Shown here: piece after piece, positions 1,043 through 42,610 of the stretch
Numbering within the stretch: position 1 is the first letter of the stretch
Layout: each line of letters starts with the position of its first letter
Origin: a bacterium
GTDB taxonomy: Bacteria; Bacillota_I; Bacilli_A; RFN20; CAG-826
NCBI GenBank assembly: GCA_963616935.1
Contig: CAVEMS010000001.1
Span: 33,273-97,272, forward strand
Reading direction: 5' to 3'
DNA length: 64,000 nucleotides
Position numbers and translations under genes: made by a program
The notes under the pieces: generated by a model
Database searches by the model: none
What the model was told of the DNA's origin: nothing
Seen by the model: only the letters and a program-made list of their open reading frames with translations

Positions 1043-2962
1043 TTACGCTTGAGCGGCGCTTGTCAATCCATAGCCAGAGAAATCGTTGGCGGTGCTATCG
1101 ACATTGGAAATGACGTATTCCGCCATCATGTATCTCTGTTCGATATCCGAGAAAGGCAGATAGATGAGCGCTTTGACGGTCACTTCGTTGGTGCTTGTGT
1201 CGATTGTGAATTCCTCATATGAAGAGTTCACGGTGTAGGAAGAGGTATCGCCACTGCCGTCGGTGTATACTACCATTCCGGTTTCTGTCATAAACGAGCC
1301 AAATAGGTAATCTTCGTATTCGCTCGCGCCTTCGCTCTTGAGTGAGATTGTCAATAACCCGAGTTGATCGAAGAGTTCTTGGAACAATCCGTTCGTTTGC
1401 TCGGTCTTGGTGCAATCGCCAATATCTCCTTTGTAAGTCACTTTGTTTCCATCGACTTTTCTCTTTTTCCAAATGGCTTTATTGATGTTGGCTTGGGTGA
1501 CGTTATCGACCATATAGCCCTTGGCATCGGCGACGCCATCGAGCGTCGTTTCCTCTTTGGTGTTGACCTCGTCCTTCGTATCGGTCTTCGCCGAATAGGT
1601 GCCGATATAGTATTTCCCATCGGCTTCGACCCAATAGGCTTTCTTCTTCTTTAGTTCGCCACCGATCGTCAAAGTCGCTTCGACGCTGACATTCGAAGAA
1701 ACGGTGTTCTTCTCGACGATCTTGCTCTTGGTGCCGGTCATTGCGTTGATCGCACTAGAATTGGCGACTTTCGAGGAATCGATCTCGTTGCCATCCTCAT
1801 CGCAAGCGTAGAGGCTCATGGTGGTGGTGTAGTTCGAAGTCGCCTTCAAAGCATTGAAGGTCGTTCCGATATCGGTAGGTGTGAGTGGCACAGGAACATA
1901 CGAGTTATCGGTGATGGCCGTTTCCAATAAGTCTAAAGCGGTGGTTCCGACGTTTGATATACGTCCAGTCGCCCATGAATAGTCACGGAAAGCGGGTGTC
2001 GTGGTGCCGTCTTCATTCTCTACGTCACCGTCAATTGTGATGTCGAAATAGAGGGTGTCCTTTTTGCCGTCGTTATCCGTATCAAGCAAATCGAGGATAC
2101 GCATTTCCTTTTCGGTGCATTTGTATTCGGTGACTTGGCTTTCGACGAAGTTCGACATACCGTAATTGAGGAACGTCTTCGCTTGAATGGCGTCGCCGAC
2201 GAGCGTTTCCTCGTTCGTTATCGGATCGTATTCGGATACGAATGAGGAACCGTCTAGCAACATGGACATGCAGATGTAGTAGTTGCCGATTTTCGTTTTG
2301 CCGTTTTCGAATTCCGGTTTTCCTTCTTCGTTGAAAGACCCCATATAGCCATTGCCGTCGCTTAGATTGGCTAGGATGAAGGAAGCGGATTCGCCAGTCG
2401 ATTCGCTTATTTCGCCGAGATTGTTTTTGTTATACGCGGCAACATAGTTCTTGTTATGGACGATGGTGTAATTTTGATAGCTGAAGCGCTTGGTGTATCG
2501 ATTATAGCTTCCGAGGTCGACGGTGTAGTTTTTGCCATCGCTTTCTCTGAATGAATCTAAGAAGTTGATGAGTTCGATGCTGGCTTCGCTCTTGCAGCTG
2601 ATCGTGACATAGAACTGCAGATTGTTGACCGCGAGCATGATTTCGTATTCGCCGTTCTTCAAGGCGGTGACGTTATGCCCTTCGACCTTCAAATCGGCAT
2701 TGGTGTTTTGGATCGAATAGGTGCTGAGGTGGCTGCCATCTTGCATCTCGACGAAGAAGTAATCGTCCAAATTGATGGTTTGACCAACCTTGACATAAGG
2801 CAGATCCTTATCCGTGTAAGAGAATTGATAAACATCTCCGTCGACGGTGACGGCGGAGAAATTCGACGCATTGCCGCTAGCATCATCGTTGCCGCAGGCC
2901 GTCATAAGCGTGCCTAGCAGGGCGATAGAGGCGATGACAAGTAGTTTTTTCTTATTTTTCAT
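1043..2962 (-). CDS. Hypothetical surface lipoprotein (639 aa)
   Basis: Signal peptide with lipobox (LLGTLMTACGNDD). The rest is rich in N/Y/S/T/D, and no recognisable catalytic motif was found. Confidence 0.6.
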   Translation of the reverse strand: MKNKKKLLVIASIALLGTLMTACGNDDASGNASNFSAVTVDGDVYQFSYTDKDLPYVKVGQTINLDDYFFVEMQDGSHLSTYSIQNTNADLKVEGHNVTALKNGEYEIMLAVNNLQFYVTISCKSEASIELINFLDSFRESDGKNYTVDLGSYNRYTKRFSYQNYTIVHNKNYVAAYNKNNLGEISESTGESASFILANLSDGNGYMGSFNEEGKPEFENGKTKIGNYYICMSMLLDGSSFVSEYDPITNEETLVGDAIQAKTFLNYGMSNFVESQVTEYKCTEKEMRILDLLDTDNDGKKDTLYFDITIDGDVENEDGTTTPAFRDYSWATGRISNVGTTALDLLETAITDNSYVPVPLTPTDIGTTFNALKATSNYTTTMSLYACDEDGNEIDSSKVANSSAINAMTGTKSKIVEKNTVSSNVSVEATLTIGGELKKKKAYWVEADGKYYIGTYSAKTDTKDEVNTKEETTLDGVADAKGYMVDNVTQANINKAIWKKRKVDGNKVTYKGDIGDCTKTEQTNGLFQELFDQLGLLTISLKSEGASEYEDYLFGSFMTETGMVVYTDGSGDTSSYTVNSSYEEFTIDTSTNEVTVKALIYLPFSDIEQRYMMAEYVISNVDSTANDFSGYGLTSAAQA

Positions 2963-3197
2963 ACGCTTTACCTCACAAAGTGCACGAGTAGGATATGCCC
3001 TCTTTTGAATTTTTCAATGATTATTTTTCGCCTATGCGCATAATGTGCGCTTATGTGCGGTAAAATGCGGTAAAAATAGATTTTCTCATATGGCGAAGAA
3101 ATGAAACGAGAAGCTTATTACACCGAAAAGAATGATTGAAATTTCAAACTTTCTTTGTATTATCACTTGTGCGACCCGAGCAAGGAGGGTTTTGAGT

Positions 3198-4796
3198 ATG
3201 AAAAAAAGTGCATTATTACTTGGCGTCTTGGCCACTAGCTTGGCTTTATGCGGGTGCGGTGGCAATAATGATAATTCTGACAGCAGTGACAGTTCTTTTT
3301 CTCCTGAGGAGATAGAAACTCGTCGCGCCGCTTTAGCGAACTTCATTGTCGGGATGGGAAAAAATAACCTTACCCTTAAAGTGACCGGAGCGAACTCCTC
3401 ATTACGCTATTATTTGGGATCCGATGCCTTCGTCACGGAAGATACGGCCTCCAAAAGCCAAAGTGGCGTCTTAGCCAACAAAGAACAGGGGTTCTATTAT
3501 TTCACGGTTAATGCCGACGACACTTTGACCTTCTCTGGCTGCGCTGGACTCGGAAGCGACATCGCTTCTTATTACATTACCCCATACAACGTCTTCGCAA
3601 GCGACGATATGAGGGAATATTACGACTTAACGAGCGGTAGTAACAAAGACGACAGCTACACATTCAAATTCGACACCACGAAGATGATTGCCGATTACAC
3701 TTCGGGGGACAGCACGGCGATTTATTATCTCGCCTATTTGCTTGGCGCCTATGATTCCTCTAGCAGCACCGTCTATTATTCCTACGTCACTTCTCTTGAA
3801 CTGACTCTCGCTAAGAACGGGAACGCTTCAATCAAATTGAAATACAAGACTGGCGTTTCCACTCAGACTCAGACTGCGACTATCTATAACATCGGGACCA
3901 CAACCGTCAAAGCGGTTGATGATTACCTTAAGAATCCAAAAACTTTCGAAGCTCCTACCGACTTTACCGAAGCTTCAAAGAAAGCCATCAGTTCGATCTT
4001 CGCCGATCATGAGTCGGATATCGTTTTCCCAGCAGGAATAGCTACGGCCGCTTACATGGATTCGCCATTGCAGTATAGTGACGGCACTTATGCCGGCATC
4101 GAGTGGGTCAATTACGGCGCTGGCAACCTTACCAAAAAATATGCCGCGAAGCTTCTTTCCAAAGGATACGAACTCGACCAAGTCGTTCCCGCCAAGGAAA
4201 GCAGCGACGGATACACGCATTATTACTATACTCACGAATTCGCCGATCAAATCGAGGCGGCCGAAGCGACGGAAGATACCGAGGCCGTCGAGGCTAAAGG
4301 TGCCGTCTATATCGTGGCCGATATCTATTACTCATCGAGCTATGATACCTTCACGGTTCAGTTCTATACCGAAGAGGCACCGCTGTATTGGACTTATGAA
4401 ACTGTCGCCGATGCCAATATGAAGATTGCTGCGATCAACGCTTCCGAAAGCAAGAAATATTCTGTTCCGAATTTGCCCGAATCGAGCAATATCACGAGCG
4501 AAATACTTGTCGAAAGCGACATTCGCATCTATCCGTACTACTACTATTACACTTACTACTACATCTTCGTTCTCGAATTTGACACCGAAGCGAATGCCGT
4601 GGCTTATGCGAATTCTTATATCGCAGCGATCAATTCGGAGAAGAAATACGTCGACACTGGCAAGTACACCATCGAAAAGGATGGGCAAGCCACTTTTGCG
4701 GCTCCAAACGCCAGCGCAGCGGAAGCGTTAATCAATGTCGTTGCTGGTGAGACTTCCGTCGGAACCTACGCCGTCAACATCTATTTCGCCGGCTAA
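3198..4796 (+). CDS. Hypothetical surface lipoprotein (about 533 aa)
   Basis: ATG at 3198 is preceded by an AGGAGGG RBS. The product starts MKKSALLLGVLATSLALCGCGG (lipobox). It contains a Tyr-run (YPYYYYYTYYY) encoded by TAC/TAT repeats. Confidence 0.7.
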   Translation: MKKSALLLGVLATSLALCGCGGNNDNSDSSDSSFSPEEIETRRAALANFIVGMGKNNLTLKVTGANSSLRYYLGSDAFVTEDTASKSQSGVLANKEQGFYYFTVNADDTLTFSGCAGLGSDIASYYITPYNVFASDDMREYYDLTSGSNKDDSYTFKFDTTKMIADYTSGDSTAIYYLAYLLGAYDSSSSTVYYSYVTSLELTLAKNGNASIKLKYKTGVSTQTQTATIYNIGTTTVKAVDDYLKNPKTFEAPTDFTEASKKAISSIFADHESDIVFPAGIATAAYMDSPLQYSDGTYAGIEWVNYGAGNLTKKYAAKLLSKGYELDQVVPAKESSDGYTHYYYTHEFADQIEAAEATEDTEAVEAKGAVYIVADIYYSSSYDTFTVQFYTEEAPLYWTYETVADANMKIAAINASESKKYSVPNLPESSNITSEILVESDIRIYPYYYYYTYYYIFVLEFDTEANAVAYANSYIAAINSEKKYVDTGKYTIEKDGQATFAAPNASAAEALINVVAGETSVGTYAVNIYFAG

Positions 4797-4886
4797 TCTT
4801 AATTGACGTCATTAAGCGTCTCTTCGGAGGCGCTTTTTATGTCTTTATTTTTCAAACGACTCCTATATATTTATTGCGGGGACAAT

Positions 4887-6431
4887 ATGAAGAGAAATCA
4901 CTTAGCACGTATCCCATTATTCGTCATTACGACGGTGTCCTTATCGTCGTGCAATATTTTTTCTCTTTTAAGCTCAAATCAAGATTATTCATATCCGCAT
5001 TATAGCGACGCTTCTTTTTCTAGCGAGACGCGCGGCGGATATAGTAACGCACAGGCGAAGTTCACGATGAGCGATGTCGGAAAAAGTGCGGGTTTCTCTT
5101 ATCTAAAAAGTATTGGAAATCCAAAAATCCTTGTGATTCCCGTCTCGATTGAAGGTTATGAAAGGAACGCGAGTTCCACTAATCTAGCAAGGATCAAAAA
5201 GGCTTTCAAAGGGACCGACAACATTTGGCAAAGCGTGGAATCCTTCTATAACATCTCCTCTTTCGGCAGATTGAACCTCGATATAACAATCGCGGACGAG
5301 TGGTATCAGTCGGGCAAGACGCCGGCTGAGATTTATGGAGGAGACGCTTCTTCATCCTCGAAGACCGCCGGCGTCCAAAACGTCCTCAATAGCGCAGTTT
5401 CGTGGTATAAGACGAAATACGATACTGATTGTGAAGAGTTCGATTCTGATAATGACGGCTATATTGATGCTGTCTGGCTTATCTATAGTTGTCCAGACTA
5501 CCAAACGGATACCTCTTTAAAGAAATATGATCCGACGTGTTGGGCGTATACGTATTGGGCGGATAACAATTCAAACATCAATTCTCCTTCCGCTTGCACC
5601 TATGGCTGGGCTTCCTATGACTTTATGAACGAAGGGTATGGCAGTTTTCAAAGCGATGCCCACACCTTCATCCATGAGACCGGGCACATGATGGGGCTAG
5701 AGGATTATTACGATTACAACGTCGTTTCCAAGGATGACGGCTCCTCTCCTATGGGATTCGTCGATATGATGGACGCCAACGTCATCGATCATAACGTCTT
5801 CTCCAAATGGTCGCTTGGCTGGGTCGCTCCTTTCGTCGTGACGGGGAAGGGGTCGATCAGATTGGCCCCATCGGCGACAACCGGCGAATGTTTGATCATA
5901 CCGACTTCGTCGGGATGGAATGGCTCCCCATTCGACGAATACATAATGTTGGAGTATTACACCCCGGAGAACCTCAATTACAAGGATTCCAAAAGTGAAT
6001 ATCTCGGCAATGGCGTCCAAGGCTTTACGCAAAAAGGCGTTAGGATCTATCACGTCGATTCGCGTTTGGCAAAGCTATCGGGCAGATCCAATTGGTCTTA
6101 TACGTCATCGTTATCGACGAATTGCATACTTGCGCATTCGAATACGCCATCCTATGGCGATGACGAAGATAGGGAAACGAGGAATTACCTTTCCCCGAAT
6201 TATCGTTTGATACAGATGATGGACGCATCGGCCAAAAGAGACTTCTCTTCCGTCTATGTCCAAGCTGATGACACATCGCTATTTGGGACTCGCACCAATT
6301 CGGTTTTCTCTTTCTCGTCCTTCAAGAATTCCTTCCCGAACAAAACGAAAATGAATAATGGCGGGACGTTCGAATATAAGATTTCTGTAAGCGAAATGAC
6401 TTCCGATGGCGTGTTGATAACTATTTCCTAA
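4887..6431 (+). CDS. Secreted/lipoprotein zinc metalloprotease, M6 (immune inhibitor A)-like
   Basis: Signal peptide and lipobox-like LSSC. Carries the motif HETGHMMGLEDYYDY (HExxHxxGxxD), characteristic of M6-type zinc metallopeptidases. The in-frame ATG at 4887 is chosen as the start over the upstream ATG at 4803. Confidence 0.6.
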   Translation: MKRNHLARIPLFVITTVSLSSCNIFSLLSSNQDYSYPHYSDASFSSETRGGYSNAQAKFTMSDVGKSAGFSYLKSIGNPKILVIPVSIEGYERNASSTNLARIKKAFKGTDNIWQSVESFYNISSFGRLNLDITIADEWYQSGKTPAEIYGGDASSSSKTAGVQNVLNSAVSWYKTKYDTDCEEFDSDNDGYIDAVWLIYSCPDYQTDTSLKKYDPTCWAYTYWADNNSNINSPSACTYGWASYDFMNEGYGSFQSDAHTFIHETGHMMGLEDYYDYNVVSKDDGSSPMGFVDMMDANVIDHNVFSKWSLGWVAPFVVTGKGSIRLAPSATTGECLIIPTSSGWNGSPFDEYIMLEYYTPENLNYKDSKSEYLGNGVQGFTQKGVRIYHVDSRLAKLSGRSNWSYTSSLSTNCILAHSNTPSYGDDEDRETRNYLSPNYRLIQMMDASAKRDFSSVYVQADDTSLFGTRTNSVFSFSSFKNSFPNKTKMNNGGTFEYKISVSEMTSDGVLITIS

Positions 6432-6535
6432 AAAACGAAAAACCGCTGCAAAACGCGCATATATTCCTTAAAAACCAAATGATTTTATGCTGAGATTTTC
6501 GTTTCTGCCTGAAAACAATGCGTTTTCCGATACGA

Positions 6536-7987
6536 CTATTTCAAACGATAGGCTCTGGAGCGATTGAAGCCAACCGCTTCGATCTCATCGATCTTCGAAA
6601 GGATCGCTCTTATTCGCGATTGGCTGAGCCCGGTGTATTCGGCTAACTCTTTGCCTGTGGATTTCCCATTGTCTCTTAGATATTCCATCACCATGGCTTT
6701 TGTCTCATCGAACTTCTTGCTATGCGTTTTCTCGTTTATTTGCATTGTCCCAAATCTCTTGTCTAGGGGTAAAGCGAGGATTATGCGATCGGGATCGAAT
6801 TGCTCTTCGATGGTTGGGGTTCGTAAACCCTGTTTTCTCCAAACCTCGTATATCATTGGGACGCCGCTTCCTGCACGTTCGCCGATGTTTATGAGATTGA
6901 ACATTTTCATAAGGCCTCTGTTTCTCGGATCAGAGACGCCTCCTTTAAGCATCTGTTCTTTTCCGGTTCGGCTATAGCCAGGATTTGCGAAAGCGATTTT
7001 GTTTTGCTTAAGCGTGATGACGACGCCTCGCGATCCGTAATAATCGGCATTTACTAAGCAATTGGACAGCGCTTCGCGAATGGCTTCGTGTAATGGCGTG
7101 TCATCGATTCTGCTTTCGTCTTTAAGCTTGAAAGGCAGATTAAGAGATTGCTTGAGCTTGTTGTAGACCCGGTAATAGAAGTCGAAAACGTTGCCTGACC
7201 AGTCTCCGGAACTCGATTGTACGCGGTCGTCCCAACGGTTCTTCGGATCGATTTCGGCTCGATAGTCGAGGAAATAACTTGGAAATTGTCTTGTGATGTC
7301 GTACTCGTTTCCAAACATCAACAAGCCGGCGGCTGTGGGGTGCAACTTCCCATCGATTTTGGAAATGGCGGCGGCGTTAAGGCTGCGGAGGAACTCATCA
7401 TCGCTAAGGCGAGAAAAAGGATGACTTGGCTTAAGAGAGGCGAAGATGTTGCGATAAGCGCGGATCGACTCCGAATTTAGGGAATCGAGTCCGATATCGT
7501 CGAGAACGTTCATGTCGATCGTGTCATCGGCCTGATCGCGAAGCATCGTTTTGACTTGGAGTTTGGTGCAATGGTAATCGCCTGCCCAATTTCTGCGAAA
7601 GGAGCCGCCGAAAATATCGCCGTTTATGTATACGGGTTTCATCTCGCGGGAAGCGGATGGCACATGAATAACCATGATTGAATTGCCATTATATGAGAAG
7701 CTCTCGACGTCCTTTTCCCGCAAAAGATTGATGCTTACTTTGTTGGGGTTGTTTATGGCATCCCAAAATTCCTTCTTAAGCCGTTCTTCGTCTTTTAGTC
7801 CGGTGACGGACCAACTTCCATCTTGGTTTTCTTTACCGCCGAGAATTATGACGCCGCCATAAGAATTTGCGAAAGCGGAGTACGTCTCCCAAAGAGAAAG
7901 CGGCAATTCGCCGCTGGCCTTTTTAATTTCCATCCTGTTGCCTTCGCGATAGGATTCAAATTTTGATAAATCGAATGGCTCGTTCAT
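6536..7987 (-). CDS. Putative transcriptional regulator with AlbA_2 (Schlafen-like) N-terminal domain, HATPase_c_4-like middle domain and C-terminal HTH (COG2865-like)
   Basis: The N-terminal region (...FANSYGGVIILGGKEN..., a putative DNA-binding domain) and C-terminal HTH (GKSTGKELAEYTGLSQSRIRAIL) fit this family. Start is set at ATG 7987..7985 (MNEPFDL...). The ORF-track start at 8167 lies in an AT-rich repeat region and is unlikely. Confidence 0.55.
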   Translation of the reverse strand: MNEPFDLSKFESYREGNRMEIKKASGELPLSLWETYSAFANSYGGVIILGGKENQDGSWSVTGLKDEERLKKEFWDAINNPNKVSINLLREKDVESFSYNGNSIMVIHVPSASREMKPVYINGDIFGGSFRRNWAGDYHCTKLQVKTMLRDQADDTIDMNVLDDIGLDSLNSESIRAYRNIFASLKPSHPFSRLSDDEFLRSLNAAAISKIDGKLHPTAAGLLMFGNEYDITRQFPSYFLDYRAEIDPKNRWDDRVQSSSGDWSGNVFDFYYRVYNKLKQSLNLPFKLKDESRIDDTPLHEAIREALSNCLVNADYYGSRGVVITLKQNKIAFANPGYSRTGKEQMLKGGVSDPRNRGLMKMFNLINIGERAGSGVPMIYEVWRKQGLRTPTIEEQFDPDRIILALPLDKRFGTMQINEKTHSKKFDETKAMVMEYLRDNGKSTGKELAEYTGLSQSRIRAILSKIDEIEAVGFNRSRAYRLK

Positions 7988-8010
7988 GATATTTCCTCTG
8001 ATTGCAATAT

Positions 8011-8078
8011 ATCGTTTGCTATCGCATTTTGCAAGCGATAATAAATGTTTTGCAAGCGATAAAAAACAAGCGATAAAA
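8011..8078. repeat. Cluster of direct and inverted copies of GCAAGCGATAA immediately upstream of the COG2865-like regulator gene (candidate operator)
   Basis: TTTTGCAAGCGATAA occurs at 8027..8041 and 8047..8061, with a third copy ACAAGCGATAA at 8065..8075. A near-inverse copy TATCGTTTGC lies at 8011..8020. Confidence 0.4.
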
Positions 8079-8440
8079 TATGATATATCTCTTTCTCCCA
8101 AAGAGGCGATGAATACGAAAAACCTTGTTGTATTTTTTGCCTGATGAGTATGAAAACGGCTTAGCATCGAAGAATTCTATTTAATTTTCAGATGATGGAC
8201 GATTTTTCTTTCGCATGGTTTCTTTGAAACGAAAGCGAATTTTATCGCTTGTTTTGATCGTTCTGAACTGGTGATGAATGCGATTCCATGCGAAATGAAA
8301 TCGTTCGGTCGGTGCCCGATGTGATCTTATAATCGCTTATTTGGCGTGCGGTTTATGTGTTTTTGAACGAAAACATGATTTCTTGCACATAATCTATAAG
8401 ACTAGTAATATAACTTCGTTCAATTTTTTGAGGTGTTTCT

Positions 8441-22379: not shown

Positions 22380-24671
22380 TTAGTTAATGCTGACGACCGA
22401 TGCGTAGAATGGAGTGATGACGAAGGTGTTCCAAGAGCACCAGCCAACCGTCAAAATAAGACCGGCTTTGCCAGTGTTTACGTCATCGCTCAAGCTTAGT
22501 GTCTTATTGATAGAGCTCGAAGAGAACATTGCTTTACCGCCTGAAATTGTTACGGTTGTGAACTCGGTGTTCCAATTGCCACCGGTCGGGTCGCAATAAG
22601 GGGCGATGCCGATGAAATTGTCGAGTTGCATTAAGGAATCCGGTATCGGATATTGCGTTGTAGTTTCTGGAATCGTGCCGAGCCAATATTTAGCCGTACG
22701 ATCGCCTGCGCCTCCGCCGAGTCCCATCGTGAATGTGACTTTATCGTAGGATGAGTAATTGAAGGCGGGGAGAGTCATGGTAACGTATGAGCCATCCATT
22801 CCGTTCATTGAGAACTGAAGACTATTTTCAACGGAGTATCCACTGCCTTGAGCAGCGATGGCGCTTCCACTTCCTGTTATGCCAGAAAGGATGCTTGCAC
22901 CGCTATCGGTGAATTCAAGAACCTTGGTGGCCGATGCATTCGCGGCATCGAGCCAAGCTTGCATCTTTGAAGTGATAAAGTTCGCCTTCTCATAGGTGGT
23001 CATGCAATCGGAAAGCGCCTTATACTTTTTCAATTGATCGGAGTAACCGGCGACCGGGGTGTCCGGCAATGCAGTTTCGATTGAAGGCATAAGGGAGAGA
23101 TAGTCGCAGTCGAGAGTGACGAAAGGCGTCAAGAAGAGCCATGCCTGGCAACATTGAGTTGTCTTAATTTCCAGGCCTTTCTTGCCGGTGTAAGTGTCAT
23201 CGTCGAGTTCAAAAGCGACAGTGTTCTTTTCACAATTGTTATAGACGCTAACGCTTTTCCCAGTAATAGTCACCTCGTAGTTTTTATATTTATATTCTGT
23301 AAATCCCGACTGGTCACAACTGTCTTTACCAAGAGAGTTGCCGTTTAGATAAGTTCCGTACCAAACCCCTGCGGAGAAACCAAAGGTGAAATGAACGCCA
23401 CTTACCTTGGAGAAATCGAAGGCGGGTAAGCCTAGACCTAATGATGCATTATAGGTATCTCCCGGATAGAAGCCTTGTGATCCTTCGGGCGTACCTGGAT
23501 AAATATTCCACGTGTTGACGTCCGACTGGATATCAGCATCTGAGCGAACCGCATAGGCGGCGTTAACCCCTTCGGGAGTTGTGTAATCGCTTTGGTTGTT
23601 TGTGAAAGTTAAAACTTTAGCATTGCTGTCGTCATAATAAGAATCGGTCCAACGGGCAACCAGAGCGGTAGTTGTAGTGGAGACACTTTCGACTTCGTTC
23701 CCGCTTTCGTCGTACCATCCGAGGAATTTCTTCCCGCTCATGGTCGGCGCCTCCGGGAGCGAGCCGATCTCGACCTCGGCGCTTCCGTCGACGTTGTCGG
23801 CCGCCACGTTCTTCAAGGCCACGGTCACCGGGGCGAGCTCATAGGAGAGGCCCGAGACCATGATGTATCCGCGGAGCTCGGTGAACTTGAGTATGAAGTC
23901 GGTGAAGTTCGCCGTCGTCCCGCCCGAATAGGCGATGGTGACCTGGTGCCACGCGTCGTCGTTTAGGAGCTTGGAGCTGATGTCGTGGCCGACGTAGGCG
24001 GTGTCCTTGAATTGGCATAGCGCCGTGAAGCCGACAGGCTCGCTCGCGCTGCCGCCCCCGGCCCAGGATCCCGTGCCGTAATTGCAGTATCTGTACCAGA
24101 AGCTCGCCGATTTGACCTTCCTCGACCCCTCCGGGACGGTGAAGCGGAACTCGGAGCAGTTCTCGTTGCCCGTCGGGTTCACCGGGTCGCCGGTCTTGTT
24201 CGAGCGGGAGAAGTAGATGGCGGTCCTCCCGCCGTCTTTGACGAAGCAAGGTGTCGAATCGACTTTGTCGCTTGAGGCGTCCTTTCCGTTCGCCCCCTGG
24301 TCGACGTATTTGAATTTCTTCGTGTTGACGTTGGCGATCTCGTCGTCCTCGGCGTTCGGGGCGTCGGCGGCCTCGAGCTTTGCGAGGGTGATCTCAGCCT
24401 CCGAGACGTGCTCTTTGGCGGCGTAGGAGTATCTGGCTTGGTCGGCGCTCACGAGGCAGCAGTCGTTGCAGTGCCAGTGCGCCCTCTCGCCCGTCGACGT
24501 CGTGGTCGGGGCGAAGAAGGGCTTCTCGACCAAGGTGTGCGAGGCGTCGTGGTCCGCGGCGTAGGTCGGTGCGATGAGGCCGCTATTGCCGAGCGCGACC
24601 CCGGCCACGCCGATGCCCATCACCGCTGAAACGGCTGTCAAGGCGATAGCCATGATTTTCTTTTTCTTCAT
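22380..24671 (-). CDS. Secreted protein with a Listeria-Bacteroides repeat. Its C-terminal region (about 450 aa) is paralogous to the 31788..34115 protein.
   Basis: Signal peptide MKKKKIMAIALTAVSAVMGIGVAGVALG. Repeat motif GKKFLGWYDESGNEV...ALVARW. The C-terminal two-thirds align with the 31788..34115 protein (TFGFS..., FDCDYL..., YEK..., FTFGLGG...). The 5' roughly 900 nt (about 23740..24650) is strongly GC-rich. Confidence 0.7.
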   Translation of the reverse strand: MKKKKIMAIALTAVSAVMGIGVAGVALGNSGLIAPTYAADHDASHTLVEKPFFAPTTTSTGERAHWHCNDCCLVSADQARYSYAAKEHVSEAEITLAKLEAADAPNAEDDEIANVNTKKFKYVDQGANGKDASSDKVDSTPCFVKDGGRTAIYFSRSNKTGDPVNPTGNENCSEFRFTVPEGSRKVKSASFWYRYCNYGTGSWAGGGSASEPVGFTALCQFKDTAYVGHDISSKLLNDDAWHQVTIAYSGGTTANFTDFILKFTELRGYIMVSGLSYELAPVTVALKNVAADNVDGSAEVEIGSLPEAPTMSGKKFLGWYDESGNEVESVSTTTTALVARWTDSYYDDSNAKVLTFTNNQSDYTTPEGVNAAYAVRSDADIQSDVNTWNIYPGTPEGSQGFYPGDTYNASLGLGLPAFDFSKVSGVHFTFGFSAGVWYGTYLNGNSLGKDSCDQSGFTEYKYKNYEVTITGKSVSVYNNCEKNTVAFELDDDTYTGKKGLEIKTTQCCQAWLFLTPFVTLDCDYLSLMPSIETALPDTPVAGYSDQLKKYKALSDCMTTYEKANFITSKMQAWLDAANASATKVLEFTDSGASILSGITGSGSAIAAQGSGYSVENSLQFSMNGMDGSYVTMTLPAFNYSSYDKVTFTMGLGGGAGDRTAKYWLGTIPETTTQYPIPDSLMQLDNFIGIAPYCDPTGGNWNTEFTTVTISGGKAMFSSSSINKTLSLSDDVNTGKAGLILTVGWCSWNTFVITPFYASVVSIN

Positions 24672-31787: not shown

Positions 31788-34115
31788 TTAGGCTTTGATG
31801 CCGGTGATGGGGGATATCACAAAGAATTCCCAGCACGTTCCGCCGAGGCTAAGCGTTAAAGCGGCGGTGCCGTTATTGACGTTTTCGTCCAGTGTGAATT
31901 CTTTTTTGATATACGTTCCGACGAAGGAGATTTTTCCATTAGAGATGGTGACTTTCGTGTCTTCGGCAAGCTCCCACCCCCTGGTTGTGGTTTCTGGAGC
32001 AAGACCGATGAAGTTATCGGCCGATGGCGATGCCGAATAGGAGTCCGGCGCCGCTCCGAGGAAATATTGCATCTTTCCTCCGCCGCCGTTTCCGCCAAGT
32101 CCGAATGTGAAGCTTACTTTGCTATATTCAGAGTAATTGATCTTCGGGAAGGTGAGTGTCGCGTAAGCGCTTGAAAGGTTGTTAACTTGTCCGACGAAAT
32201 AATCGTCGCCAAGGGAGAATGGGAGGTTTTCGCCGAGGCTTCCTGCTGTTTTGGCTGCCGTTTTCTTGTCAGAGCTACAATCGAAACCGCTACTTGAGGA
32301 GACGATGCCGGAATTATCGGTGAAAGTGATGAAAGGAGTGTAGGCTTCGACCCACGCTTTCATCTTGGCTGACAATGGATTGGCCGTCTTTTCGTAAGAG
32401 GTCATAAGGTCCATAAGCGATTTGTATTCGCTTATTTGACCGGCGTATCCATCAACTGCGGCGTCTGGAAGCGCGTCTTCGATGGCTGACATGACCCCTA
32501 GATAATCGCAGTCGAACGTGCGGAACGGAGAGACGTATAGCCATCTCCAATTCGCGCCGGTCAAGGTTATCTCAAGGCCTTTTCTGCCATGGTATGTGTC
32601 ATTATCAAGCGTAATCGAGGTGTTCGCTCCGGTATAGGCATTGCTCACCGTTACGTTTTGTCCATCGATGGTCACGGTGTAGTTATAGAAGCTCTTGGTC
32701 GCTAAGTCCCCGATCGCCGTGTTGTTGAGCTTGACGCTGGAAACGCTGCCGCTGAAACCGAAGGTGAAACCGATGGGTGAGGTGGCGGCGGAGAAATCGT
32801 AAGCGGGGAGCCCTAATCCGGCGACCACGCTCATGCTGTTAGGATATAGGAAGCCTTGTGAGCCGTCGCCTCCGGGATAATATTCGCTTGTGATGTCGCT
32901 ATCCCTGTCCGTTTCTCCTCTCACTGCGTATTTCCAAGTTGCCTCGGATGGCTGAGTGTAGTCGGTGTCATTATTGGTTAATTTCAAAACGGCATCGTTA
33001 TTCTCGTTAAAATGGGTCGCGCTCCAGCGAGCGACGAGAGTCATATCGTCGTTGACTTTATCGACTTTTTCGCCTTCTTCGTTATACCAACCGATGAACT
33101 TATGCCCAGCGATGTCTTCTGGCGCGCTTGGGAGTTTGTTTGAAGCGACTTTGACGCTCGTATTCGCTCCATCGGCTGTGACGTTCTTTAACGTGACGTC
33201 ATAGGCGCCTTTTGCGACATGGACGTTGATTTCGAGACTCATGGCGAATTCTTCGCAAACGACCTTCAAAATCGCTTCGCCTTTCGCTTTGGCGACGATT
33301 TTGCCATCTTCCCAAACGGCTACGGATTCGTCGCTTGAAACGTATTTCAAAGCGTACGTTGCTTTGTTTTCTCCTTCGGTGAAGACGATTTCTGGGGTGA
33401 ATTCCGTTTCGTATCCGTCTTCTCCTTCCATTTTGTAAGTGGCGAGGTTAAGCTCATAACCATTCTCTCCGTCTTCGAGATTTCCTAAGGCTAGATGCAA
33501 ATCGCTATTGACGACATTCACTTTTAGCGTTTGCGATAAGGTCACGCCTTTTGCCTTGGTGTGGATAACATATGATGATTGGCCGTATTTTAAGCCAACT
33601 ACTTTGATTTTCGAATTTTCGTATGTCAAAGAGGCGATGTCGTCACTTTCCATTTCGAGCGTGGCGTCGATTATCTCGCCTTTATAAAGGACATAGGCAT
33701 CGATGGAATATGTTTCGTCTTTTCCGATGCTCACCTCAAGGTCGCTCATAACGATGCGTGGAGCTTGGGAAATGGATTTTACGGTGACATCGCAAGTCGC
33801 TCTGACGCCTCCTATTGAAGCGACTATGACGCAGTTTCCCGTTTTAAGGGCTTCGACTTTGCCGTTCGAGACGCTTGCGACTGAGTTATCGCTGCTTCCC
33901 CAAGTGACGGGGCCAGAAAGGTTTTGAAGCTCATATGTCAGAGTTATGCTTTCATATTGCTCAAGCGAGACGCTCGTTTGGCTTAGTATGATCTTTGGCT
34001 CAACCAGTGAGGAGCCGCTGTCATTTGAAGGGTTCTCGCTTTTTCCCTCGCCGCAAGCGGCAAGAAGACAGGCGGAACTAAGGAGAAGTAAGATGGAAGA
34101 TATTTGCTTTTTCAT
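31788..34115 (-). CDS. Surface lipoprotein with Big_2 (bacterial Ig-like) domains, a Listeria-Bacteroides repeat, and a C-terminal domain paralogous to the 22380..24671 protein
   Basis: Lipobox LLLSSACLLAACGEG. Big_2-like sequence (VTWGSSDNSVASVSNGKVEALKTGNCVIVA). Repeat motif GHKFIGWYNEEGEKV...LVARW. C-terminal homology to the 22380..24671 product. Confidence 0.7.
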   Translation of the reverse strand: MKKQISSILLLLSSACLLAACGEGKSENPSNDSGSSLVEPKIILSQTSVSLEQYESITLTYELQNLSGPVTWGSSDNSVASVSNGKVEALKTGNCVIVASIGGVRATCDVTVKSISQAPRIVMSDLEVSIGKDETYSIDAYVLYKGEIIDATLEMESDDIASLTYENSKIKVVGLKYGQSSYVIHTKAKGVTLSQTLKVNVVNSDLHLALGNLEDGENGYELNLATYKMEGEDGYETEFTPEIVFTEGENKATYALKYVSSDESVAVWEDGKIVAKAKGEAILKVVCEEFAMSLEINVHVAKGAYDVTLKNVTADGANTSVKVASNKLPSAPEDIAGHKFIGWYNEEGEKVDKVNDDMTLVARWSATHFNENNDAVLKLTNNDTDYTQPSEATWKYAVRGETDRDSDITSEYYPGGDGSQGFLYPNSMSVVAGLGLPAYDFSAATSPIGFTFGFSGSVSSVKLNNTAIGDLATKSFYNYTVTIDGQNVTVSNAYTGANTSITLDNDTYHGRKGLEITLTGANWRWLYVSPFRTFDCDYLGVMSAIEDALPDAAVDGYAGQISEYKSLMDLMTSYEKTANPLSAKMKAWVEAYTPFITFTDNSGIVSSSSGFDCSSDKKTAAKTAGSLGENLPFSLGDDYFVGQVNNLSSAYATLTFPKINYSEYSKVSFTFGLGGNGGGGKMQYFLGAAPDSYSASPSADNFIGLAPETTTRGWELAEDTKVTISNGKISFVGTYIKKEFTLDENVNNGTAALTLSLGGTCWEFFVISPITGIKA

Positions 34116-40927: not shown

Positions 40928-42610
40928 TTAATGGTTATAGTGGCTCCACTCGTTTTTATAGTAGGTGTACATGCCAGAGAAATAATCCTCGGCTGAGTAT
41001 CCTTCGTCGGTCAAACCGGTTACGACCCACTGGTTCGTTTTGCCGTTGATAGTCGTTTCATATTGGAAATTCGGATGGAATTTCTTCTGATTGTTGGCGA
41101 AGAAGGAATTATTCGCACAAGGATAGATGATGTCGCTATTCGCCTTTCTCTCGTATAAGGAACGACCATAGTATGTCATTTGATTCAGATCGTTTTCTGT
41201 CATCGTGTAATTGAGGGCTTTCGGAGTGTTCGTAGTGATGGTGTATTCAACCAAAGAGGTGTCGGTGTTACAGAATTTGATGAATTCTTTGACGATGCTC
41301 TTCTTATATTCTTCGACGTTGGCCTTCATGAAGCAGAAAGAATAAAGATGGTCATAAAGGGTCGTTTTCTTGGTTGAATCCGCTTTTTCCTTGGTTGGTT
41401 GCGGAAGAGGCATGAAAGCGAAGCGGCGGTTCTTCATCGAAGCTGATTCGCTCTTGGACGATTCCATTTCCTCGAAAATGCCTTTGGCTTCGTTTTGCCA
41501 CCAGCAGCCATCGCTAAGCATGGCATATTGCGGGGTGCTTTCGTCATAGCCGCCATAAAGGAAATCCCTTTGGGCATCGGTATGCGAATAAGCGGTGGTC
41601 ATTTTCGTCTTGTTGTAATAACTATCGTTTTCGACGATGGTTTTGAGGAATTTGATGCCGTAATATTTTCCGGCCATACGGGAAACTTCATATCCGTTTT
41701 CTTCCGTCAATGTCGTTGGGGCGCTATCTATCACCAATTCGCCGTTTTTGATGGTTGCCAAAGTGTTAACTTCGCCATCGCAAGTGAAGACCTTGCTCAT
41801 TTCTTCTTTGCCTTCGTAATTGGCGGCGAGGGAATTGACCAATAAGTTCAAATAATCGTTTTTGTTTTTGCCGTTCGATAAGAAGGGAACGCAGTCGCTT
41901 TTGGCGATGTAGTTGCATAAGTCGAAGAATTCGTCATAAGTTGTCGGCAATCCGTCGTCGCTAGTTCCCGAAACACCGTCTGGACCGTCGGACTTTTTGA
42001 TGTTCGTTTTGCTGATGAATTTATCGGCTAGGTAAGTCGTTCCGCTTGGGTTCTTCGCAAAATAGAAACCTTTTTTGTCGAATAAATCGACGTTATAGGT
42101 GATTCCGAAATATCCAGAGTAATGCGGCAATGCGTAATAATGTTTTTCGCCGTTCTCTTCGATTCCATAGAAGGATTTTTGCGAATCGTCCATCTTATCG
42201 AGGATCGATTTGTCTTCGCCGTCGAGCTTATCGGTGACGACATCGGTGATATCGGCCAAGATTCCTTCGTTCTTAAGGCTGAAGTAAGACGATTGCTCGG
42301 TGAAGATGACTTCGTCCCTGTTCGTCAATATCTTGTTAGCGGACGCATCGGCGGTGTCCTTATTGTTATTGATATAGATTTGAACGCCTTTCTTGCCTTC
42401 TTCCAAAACGTCGTCTTTATGCGCTTCCTCAAAGCGGTCTTTAATTTTGGATAGCCACTCCGATCCGTATCCTCCGTCATAATTCCTGACGTAAATCTGC
42501 GTCTTTGATGCGTCGATTTTCTCGACATTCGGAGGAGTGGTGGTTTTGCAGCCGACCACGGCAAAGCTCAAAGCGCTTGAGGCTAAGAGCAGAACGTTTT
42601 GTTTTCTCAT
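40928..42610 (-). CDS. Extracellular solute-binding lipoprotein (family-1 sugar ABC binding protein)
   Basis: Lipobox LLLASSALSFAVVGCKT, 560 aa. First gene of the operon, adjacent to the permeases. Confidence 0.75.
   Translation of the reverse strand: MRKQNVLLLASSALSFAVVGCKTTTPPNVEKIDASKTQIYVRNYDGGYGSEWLSKIKDRFEEAHKDDVLEEGKKGVQIYINNNKDTADASANKILTNRDEVIFTEQSSYFSLKNEGILADITDVVTDKLDGEDKSILDKMDDSQKSFYGIEENGEKHYYALPHYSGYFGITYNVDLFDKKGFYFAKNPSGTTYLADKFISKTNIKKSDGPDGVSGTSDDGLPTTYDEFFDLCNYIAKSDCVPFLSNGKNKNDYLNLLVNSLAANYEGKEEMSKVFTCDGEVNTLATIKNGELVIDSAPTTLTEENGYEVSRMAGKYYGIKFLKTIVENDSYYNKTKMTTAYSHTDAQRDFLYGGYDESTPQYAMLSDGCWWQNEAKGIFEEMESSKSESASMKNRRFAFMPLPQPTKEKADSTKKTTLYDHLYSFCFMKANVEEYKKSIVKEFIKFCNTDTSLVEYTITTNTPKALNYTMTENDLNQMTYYGRSLYERKANSDIIYPCANNSFFANNQKKFHPNFQYETTINGKTNQWVVTGLTDEGYSAEDYFSGMYTYYKNEWSHYNH

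Follow-up and report, generated by a model that had tools for sequence, protein, structure and literature searches.

A 300-codon cassette of G/C-ending codons inside a bacterial secreted-protein gene: a possible hotspot of GC-biased gene conversion

Compositional islands acquired by horizontal transfer reportedly undergo amelioration, in the model of Lawrence and Ochman. A different route to local composition is conversion between gene copies, and the histones and Hsp70 are among the examples of mosaic concerted evolution. In pairs of mammalian genes, DDX19A/B and TUBG1/2 among them, elevated GC3 (the G+C content of third codon positions) is confined to conversion tracts, which is the signature of biased gene conversion (PMC2720389). 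For bacteria, GC-biased gene conversion (gBGC) was proposed by Lassalle et al. 2015 from a statistical comparison of recombinant with non-recombinant core genes (PMC4450053). Both its existence and its strength in bacteria are still argued mainly from genome-wide correlations. In another setting, the GRINS authors propose that reduced sequence complexity promotes conversion (PMC8256042). Here we examine a gene on the minus strand, 22380..24671, in a 64,000-nucleotide stretch of bacterial contig CAVEMS010000001.1 (GenBank assembly GCA_963616935.1), which we call the window. It encodes a secreted protein whose N-terminal cassette, or module, is written almost entirely in G- and C-ending codons. 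The gene is its own control: there is one frame and one mRNA, the two halves have GC3 of 0.9 and 0.5, and the contrast is replicated in orthologues and paralogues. Silent-site turnover can be measured in it, and passive explanations can be rejected.

The GC3-rich segment and its homologues

There is an abrupt compositional step within the reading frame. A maximum-likelihood two-changepoint fit gives GC3 of 0.90 in codons 16-314 and 0.52 outside them, with a likelihood ratio (LR) of 132. Followed along the gene, GC3 lies at 0.80-0.95 in codons 1-320 and at 0.40-0.62 thereafter, with GC1 and GC2 almost flat; the small change in GC1 is a rise of 0.05-0.07 in the module alongside GC3. Total GC in intervals of 300 nucleotides (nt) climbs from ~0.45 to 0.60-0.68 across ~23650..24650, reaching a peak of 0.677. 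This is the sole run above 0.60 in the window, where such intervals have a mean of 0.461 and a standard deviation of 0.042. The highest GC3 over 60 codons is 0.93 in this gene and no more than 0.78 in the other 42 open reading frames (ORFs) of the window. All other genes of the window have GC3 of 0.46-0.63, so the segment has a composition atypical for its host, and no second island with GC3 of at least 0.85 is found in the 64 kb.

The rise in GC and GC3 over the 5' part of the gene had been noticed in the initial annotation, and the difference persists when GC is calculated in windows and GC3 by codon position. The GC-rich part had been placed over the first ~300 amino acids (aa). Its extent is borne out, to codon 314, while its onset lies near codon 16 and not at the start codon. 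The downstream switch does fall where it had been put, since the changepoint at codon 314 lies inside the Listeria-Bacteroides repeat at aa 304-334. The remainder of the window had been called AT-rich; at 46% GC (46.1% for the window as a whole) it is not markedly so. Translation initiation needs weak mRNA structure, and we infer that the AT-richer first ~15 codons reflect that constraint. The next-highest GC bump in the window, 0.58-0.59 at 61851..62250, is located within ORF 61496..62968, whose maximum GC3 over 60 codons is 0.67.

Sharp compositional steps inside a gene do not automatically indicate recent horizontal transfer or a chimeric assembly. A chimeric contig, which the initial annotation had wished to see checked, is excluded. 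The 90% protein cluster comprises four members, drawn from four NCBI assemblies, with 1-3 residue differences between them, and two of those assemblies align through the gene and its 10-kb flanks. One Logan contig matches the window at 99.97% identity over 13.5 kb and encodes an identical protein, and none of its four mismatches lies within the gene.

We sought homologues by searching 1.84 billion representatives exhaustively with a profile. A first, word-indexed search had given two matches and missed closer relatives, and absence from it is not evidence. The exhaustive search found ~46 proteins with the whole module, which is always N-terminal; their lengths are 540-800 aa and their C-termini are diverse. 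DNA was compared for ~24 loci of the family (numbered with the prefix L, and proteins with the prefix P). In related genomes the cassette is carried on paralogous genes with unrelated C-termini.

We term a step strong where GC3 is 0.9 or more in the module and ~0.5 in the rest of the gene on a host contig of 41-50% GC. Strong steps are present at L002/L003 (P0001, 57% identical), at L005 and L006 (paralogues in one metagenome-assembled genome, MAG), at L020 (P0005, 55%) and, in partial form, at L011. Moderate steps (0.7-0.85) occur in the P0002/P0003 group (L004, L008, L009 and L012), L007 and L019. Homologues with 55-68% identity in genomes of 41-50% GC carry the same step, and its 3' edge varies by lineage, falling at codon 278, at codon 306 or at codons 314-345. 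Orthologous cassettes in hosts of 33-44% GC have no step. High GC3 is thus the mark of a subclade and not a requirement of the domain, and a step intrinsic to the domain is excluded. The hosts probably belong to an uncultured clade of Bacillota whose GC ranges over 33-56%.

Other arrangements are seen in the family. Two hosts, L010 and L022, have ~56% GC, with GC3 of at least 0.8 in ordinary genes. At L022 the family gene (6001-8319) has GC3 of 0.65, lower than the 0.80-0.84 of rsmH, ftsA and ftsZ (1897-5711), a contrast opposite to that of the window. At L017 the N-terminal cassette is ordinary, ~0.55, and a C-terminal patch (6800-7331, P0006 codons ~600-776) has GC3 of 0.72-0.90; this patch has no close match among the sampled loci. 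At L012 (6001-8187, P0003) the cassette is tandemly duplicated, with GC3 of 0.85, 0.72 and 0.58 in copy 1, copy 2 and the C-terminus, and one tract of 20 codons is 95% identical between the copies.

Age, codon usage and maintenance of the segment

The contig of L006 is syntenic with the window over its whole 12.9 kb, with flanks of 75-88% nucleotide identity. Its gene is therefore the positional orthologue of the window gene, and it has the same GC3 step. For a measure of age we counted third-base agreement at 4-fold sites under identical amino acids. Among the window, P0001 and P0002 modules the agreement is 0.49, 0.57 and 0.47, where independent draws would give 0.48, 0.41 and 0.42. The silent sites are thus saturated between module copies. 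GC3 stays at 0.8-0.95 in these copies despite that saturation.

The comparison of the window with L006 allows this to be put to a quantitative test. In the flanks (930 4-fold sites) weak/strong differences amount to 32%, which is 68% of saturation, and GC4 (the G+C content of 4-fold sites) is 0.63/0.62. In the module (105 4-fold sites) identity is 0.59, weak/strong differences are only 9.5% and GC4 is 0.92/0.905. Around 40% of the module sites have turned over between the two lineages, nearly all of them by C<->G swaps, which account for ~31% of the sites. We simulated the module from an all-G/C ancestor evolving under a general time-reversible (GTR) model estimated from the flanks. The simulated module has an identity of 0.58, GC4 of 0.83 and weak/strong differences of 27.8%. 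The probability of both GC4 values being at least 0.90 was 0.0006, and that of weak/strong differences at or below those observed was <0.0002. The simulation fits only with a halved rate, and this conflicts with the overall divergence observed. On these probabilities, passive amelioration after a single import is rejected. Silent-site G/C is maintained or replenished in both the window and the L006 lineages.

In the pooled strong modules the 4-fold sites are A/C/G/T = 0.05/0.64/0.27/0.03, 94% of NNY codons end in C, and 82% of Lys, Glu and Gln codons end in G. Leucine is encoded by CTC 42 times and by CTG once, and arginine by AGR 13 times and by CGN 14 times. These relative preferences recur, diluted, in the other genes of the window (CTC 174 versus CTG 40; AGR 202 versus CGN 203), and the counts in the housekeeping genes of L022, with GC3 of 0.8, are CTC 59 versus CTG 8 and AGR 22 versus CGN 32. 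A preference for CTG and an avoidance of AGR are typical of high-GC Actinobacteria and Proteobacteria but not of the module, and so an unrelated high-GC donor is unlikely. We conclude that the codon usage of the module belongs to this bacterial clade and not to a foreign phylum, and that the GC3-rich state is old and written in codon preferences native to the clade. At residues that are conserved, codon identity reaches 0.57-0.63 between modules and 0.38-0.45 between C-terminal regions.

Could selection on codons maintain the segment? Expression-linked codon selection cannot create the step, because both halves lie on one ORF and one mRNA, and Lys, Glu and Gln move to G-ending codons. Selection might instead act on silent sites through some favoured property of the mRNA or DNA, such as transcript stability, the elongation rate while the protein is exported co-translationally and its beta-sandwich folds, or the avoidance of signals rich in AT. 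The bias is held against the neutral expectation with sharp edges, the first ~15 codons are exempt as would be expected if initiation needs weak structure, and T-ending codons have nearly gone (T in 0.03 of 4-fold sites, C in 0.94 of NNY codons), all of which would suit such selection. We nevertheless judge it quite unlikely. The orthologous cassettes at L013-L018 and L021 function without the bias. G-ending Lys, Glu and Gln codons, together with the raised GC1, resemble a general GC pressure and not an optimisation matched to tRNA. The halves are translated from one mRNA, and in some lineages the 3' edge lies off the domain border. Nor is there a specific RNA structure: the folding z is +0.18 against shuffled sequences and Rfam gives no match, so that a structured RNA or riboswitch within the coding sequence was also rejected.

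The initial annotation had proposed domain capture from a high-GC donor or a very recent recombination event. A single such event from an unrelated donor, too recent to have ameliorated, would produce an abrupt compositional step, and the differing C-terminal partners of the module are compatible with it. Against this stand the same step in the syntenic orthologue and in the homologues of 55-68% identity, the saturated silent sites, the rejection of passive decay, and a codon usage that matches the clade and the housekeeping genes of its 56%-GC relative. The two parts of the protein also share their nearest neighbours. Separate searches with aa 1-314 and aa 315-763 gave P0126 (the L006 protein), P0127, P0128 and P0005 among the top matches for both; the lone discordance is the best match of the N-terminal half, P0004, which is of a paralogue type whose C-terminus differs. 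With the gene present in five independent assemblies, we regard a recent capture or an assembly chimera as already refuted, and assign it next to no probability. What survives of the proposal is the mosaic gene, in which the module is fused to unrelated C-termini and segments have moved between paralogous loci; its recent and foreign origin does not. The ultimate origin of the composition may lie in a higher-GC relative of the same clade, or in continuing gene flow from one.

Conversion between paralogous cassettes and its rivals

Exchange between cassettes can be seen directly in the two paralogues of MAG CAZCCJ01, L005 and L006. They are homologous from the ATG to ~codon 330-345 and unrelated beyond, and their GC3 changepoints, at codons 339 and 345, lie where the homology ends. 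Over codons ~30-135 and 278-327 they have 100% nucleotide identity, and in the core (codons ~203-252) 47%. The modules as a whole are 85.8% identical over 1,049 bp, on different contigs and not in one gene cluster. In codons 136-268 the window gene agrees with the paralogue L005 at 61 informative sites and with its own orthologue L006 at 31 (p = 0.002). Gene conversion between the paralogous cassettes is thus demonstrable.

The force that keeps the silent sites G/C may be GC-biased conversion among such cassettes, and this is the explanation towards which we tentatively lean. Recurrent conversion between paralogous cassettes would generate heteroduplexes, and their GC-biased repair would lead to concerted, mosaic evolution. 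Conversion limited to the extent of paralogue homology, which begins at the start codon and reaches into the Listeria-Bacteroides repeat, would give sharp edges, with the first ~15 codons left AT-richer through the constraints of translation initiation. Feedback is conceivable in addition. Confining each amino acid to one or two codons would raise codon identity from ~0.4 to ~0.62 and so permit more conversion, and the collapsed codon repertoire may in this manner be self-reinforcing. The rise in GC1 and the native codon usage fit a GC pressure at the level of DNA better than codon-level selection. That the locus is a bacterial gBGC hotspot, recoding a 300-codon cassette to ~90% G/C-ending codons and possibly reinforcing itself, we hold to be possible but doubtful.

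A number of observations weigh against GC-biased conversion. The log-odds shift needed is 1.9-2.4, far above the reported effects of bacterial gBGC (PMC4450053). There is little dose-response, the divergent tracts of L005 and L006 having GC3 of 0.85-0.91 and the identical tracts 0.92. No second cassette is present in the 64-kb window, and an L005-type paralogue was looked for in the window's own lineage and not found. Among three near-clonal strains the density of single-nucleotide polymorphisms (SNPs) is 0.0067 in the module, from six SNPs only, and 0.0065 in the flanks. Polarised changes are too sparse to reveal a fixation bias towards G and C: between L004 and L008 (95% identical) there are 7 strong-to-weak and 6 weak-to-strong changes, and between L008 and L009 (82% identical over 618 nt) there are 39 and 10, the L009 lineage decaying. 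Finally, L013/L017, L014, L015/L018, L016 and L021, with hosts of 33-44% GC, have no step, and conversion needs an extra assumption there, namely a single copy or a weaker bias.

Higher-GC relatives provide a different potential source. In recurrent import the cassette would be repeatedly replaced, through homologous recombination, by the alleles of higher-GC members of the clade, and GC3 would be replenished from outside. Two conserved stretches would host the crossovers, one being the Lys-rich start with its AAG/AAA codons and the other the GWYDE part of the Listeria-Bacteroides repeat. The relatives of ~56% GC, L022 and L010, carry the family and share its codon preferences, with housekeeping GC3 of 0.80-0.84, and the reverse contrast of L022 is suggestive of gene flow among hosts that differ in GC. 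GC3-rich patches are placed elsewhere in other lineages (the C-terminus in L017, and L019), and the 3' edges are lineage-specific, as import could explain. On balance, however, we think recurrent import unlikely. In none of the ~24 loci does a family gene with GC3 of at least 0.9 lie in a uniformly high-GC context, and the 0.80-0.84 of the known high-GC hosts is under the 0.90-0.93 of the module. Module divergence between the window and L006 equals that of the flanks (0.59 observed, 0.58 simulated), as in vertical descent, and no highly similar patches are common to divergent lineages. For import, at least five lineages would each need an independent replacement at a similar place, and the module was not found in viral contigs. 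A phage origin was rejected on this last observation, no relative of the module occurring in viral contigs.

A local mutational bias would be an AT-to-GC process, such as error-prone repair or transcription-associated mutagenesis, aimed at the first ~1 kb of the gene. Divergence at 4-fold sites is not above that of the flanks, the strain SNP densities are equal and there is no sign of hypermutation. In most lineages the 3' edge is abrupt and not graded, and the surroundings hold neither a reverse transcriptase nor a template repeat or other machinery for diversification. A bias of this kind would account for the slight rise of GC1 with GC3, for a tract that begins near the 5' end, and for the 5' to 3' fall of GC3 in P0003, but we consider it improbable. 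No reverse transcriptase domain is present among the annotated neighbours, and a diversity-generating retroelement (DGR), inversion or shufflon was rejected, since the module is not repeated within 18-36 kb or in the window and there is no second cassette.

If the gBGC hotspot is real, this would be the sharpest natural demonstration of bacterial gBGC, and a route by which surface-protein cassettes are kept exchangeable between genes. Should conversion between paralogues be the cause, the family would make a tractable system for repair bias and for the recombinability of surface modules. If conversion is not the cause, an unexplained force keeps silent sites G/C over ~900 nt.

The encoded protein and its surroundings

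The features of the locus are collected in Table 1. The product of the gene is not a lipoprotein, as it is without a lipobox Cys. In the AlphaFold model, residues 1-283 have a predicted local distance difference test score (pLDDT) of 83.6. Foldseek matches the beta-sandwich to carbohydrate-binding modules (CBMs) of families CBM16, CBM4 (CBM4-2), CBM11, CBM6 and CBM29, with TM(target), a template-modelling score, of 0.4-0.54 and E of 2e-4 to 1e-2.

Table 1. Features of the gene and its surroundings, in window positions
Feature	Positions	Strand	Basis or description
Whole gene	22380..24671	-	763 aa, secreted: signal peptide, N-terminal cassette, Listeria-Bacteroides repeat and paralogue-shared C-terminal region
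GC3-rich segment, codons 16-314	23730..24626	-	Changepoint fit, GC3 profile, codon usage
Remainder of gene, ordinary GC3 of 0.52	22380..23729	-	GC3 profile; paralogous to 31788..34115
Codons 1-15, Lys-rich start of signal peptide, host-like codons, exempt from recoding	24627..24671	-	Sequence read, changepoint
Signal-peptide region, aa 1-38, predicted disordered	24558..24671	-	Translation; pLDDT <50 for residues 1-38
Small His/Cys motif region, aa 41-100, zinc-knuckle-like	24372..24551	-	Conserved columns H41, H45, C68, C71, C72
CBM-like beta-sandwich, aa ~140-280, including hypervariable core at ~aa 180-250	23832..24254	-	AlphaFold, Foldseek
Listeria-Bacteroides repeat (Flg_new-like), aa 304-334, holding the 3' edge of the GC3-rich tract	23670..23762	-	Pfam PF09479
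Paralogue, lipoprotein of 775 aa	31788..34115	-	ORF list, Pfam, comparison
cre-like box TTGAAAGCGGTTACAA, ~100 nt upstream of start codon	24773..24788	-	Sequence, L005/L006 upstream alignment
Terminator-like hairpin and T-run, directly past stop codon	22341..22363	-	Consensus scan
Arg-rich alternative-frame ORF, 136 aa, same strand	23839..24249	-	ORF list; frames differ between orthologues

The predicted sandwich at ~140-280 superimposes on the CBM16, CBM4, CBM11, CBM6 and CBM29 folds, and the genetic context is one of glycan utilisation. It differs from these modules in that the cassette is only 9-14% identical to them, at the TM values given, and is without a match to a Pfam or CAZy family. 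Encoded around the gene are a GH2 enzyme, two DUF4838 proteins, components of an ABC transporter and a regulator of the AraC type, and a cre-like box lies upstream. From the model and these neighbours, the product is probably a secreted glycan-binding protein.

The match of the repeat to Flg_new (PF09479) has E of 2.6e-4 and 21.5 bits, below the Pfam cut-off of 27. Its motif GKKFLGWYDESGN is kept in the paralogue 31788..34115. The initial annotation was right to call the C-terminal part of the gene paralogous to that gene, with 44% identity over 408 aa. The two have Flg_new and the C-terminal region in common; the N-terminus of the paralogue is different and contains Big_2, and there is no GC3 step in it. 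The Arg-rich ORF within the module had been taken for antisense. It lies on the same minus strand in a different frame, and it merely arises from the high GC3 and is no gene. An overlapping or antisense gene was rejected generally, as the alternative frame that stays open longest is not the same one, nor of the same length, from one orthologue to another, and the silent sites are saturated. Within the near-clonal cluster, the variants P0118-P0120 differ in amino acid at codons 136, 167, 310, 323 and 368. Four of the five lie at or before 323, despite a nucleotide SNP density equal to that of the flanks, and diversifying selection may be acting on the cassette.

The His/Cys motif (profile positions 40-80) recurs 5-30 times in giant surface proteins, P0034, P0044, P0055 and others, an example being a protein with BspA-LRR and a dockerin. 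Pfam gives only sub-threshold zinc-ribbon matches for it. It may be an undescribed extracellular zinc-knuckle-like repeat. Upstream of the gene, TTGAAAGCGGTTACAA is the sole sequence that the window gene has in common with the paralogues L005 and L006, ~100 nt before the ATG. It resembles the CcpA cre consensus, and the cassette genes may accordingly be under catabolite control.

Elsewhere in the window there are no tRNA genes and no Rfam families at the gathering threshold. Four ORFs of 530-639 aa (1043..2962, 3132..4796, 4839..6431 and 40928..42610) have no Pfam match at E <=1e-5. Near these Pfam-less ORFs, 6536..8167 encodes Schlafen AlbA_2 and HATPase_c_4 domains.

Comparison with described systems

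A comparable GC3 step within a bacterial gene did not turn up in the literature searched, though this does not prove that none has been described. The segment resembles an island of the Lawrence-Ochman kind in that its composition departs sharply from that of the host genome. It differs in having native codons, in occupying the orthologous locus in a relative that has diverged, and in showing no decay towards the host.

GRINS (PMC8256042) offer another comparison. Both systems show intragenic third-position recoding, duplication within the genome and gene conversion, and the proposed link of sequence complexity to conversion echoes the feedback considered here. The L005 and L006 modules have the duplication demanded of GRINS, >500 bp at >80% identity in the same genome or cluster. 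GRINS are, however, defined by intense and correlated GC and TA skews, whose mean absolute values must both be >0.15. The absolute GC skew of the modules is 0.06-0.10 (0.152 in L020); for TA skew the absolute values are 0.16-0.23, where the window background is 0.153. The two skews are uncorrelated, with r = 0.12, -0.54, -0.28, -0.28 and 0.02. Membership of GRINS is thus rejected on both skew criteria. The signature here is high third-position G+C, and the gene family and phylum are different.

With bacterial gBGC as proposed from core genes (PMC4450053), the locus shares recombination tied to higher GC3, separately from codon-usage selection and against AT-biased mutation. No sharp intragenic island and no case of paralogous cassettes was described there.

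A further parallel is mosaic conversion in mammals (PMC2720389). There are differences: the organisms here are bacteria, the C-termini are unrelated, the step from 0.52 to 0.90 is far larger, GC3 persists in tracts that are currently divergent, and biased mismatch repair is inferred. What the two systems have in common is partial homogenisation, GC3 raised only where it occurs, and paralogues that are closer to one another than orthologues.

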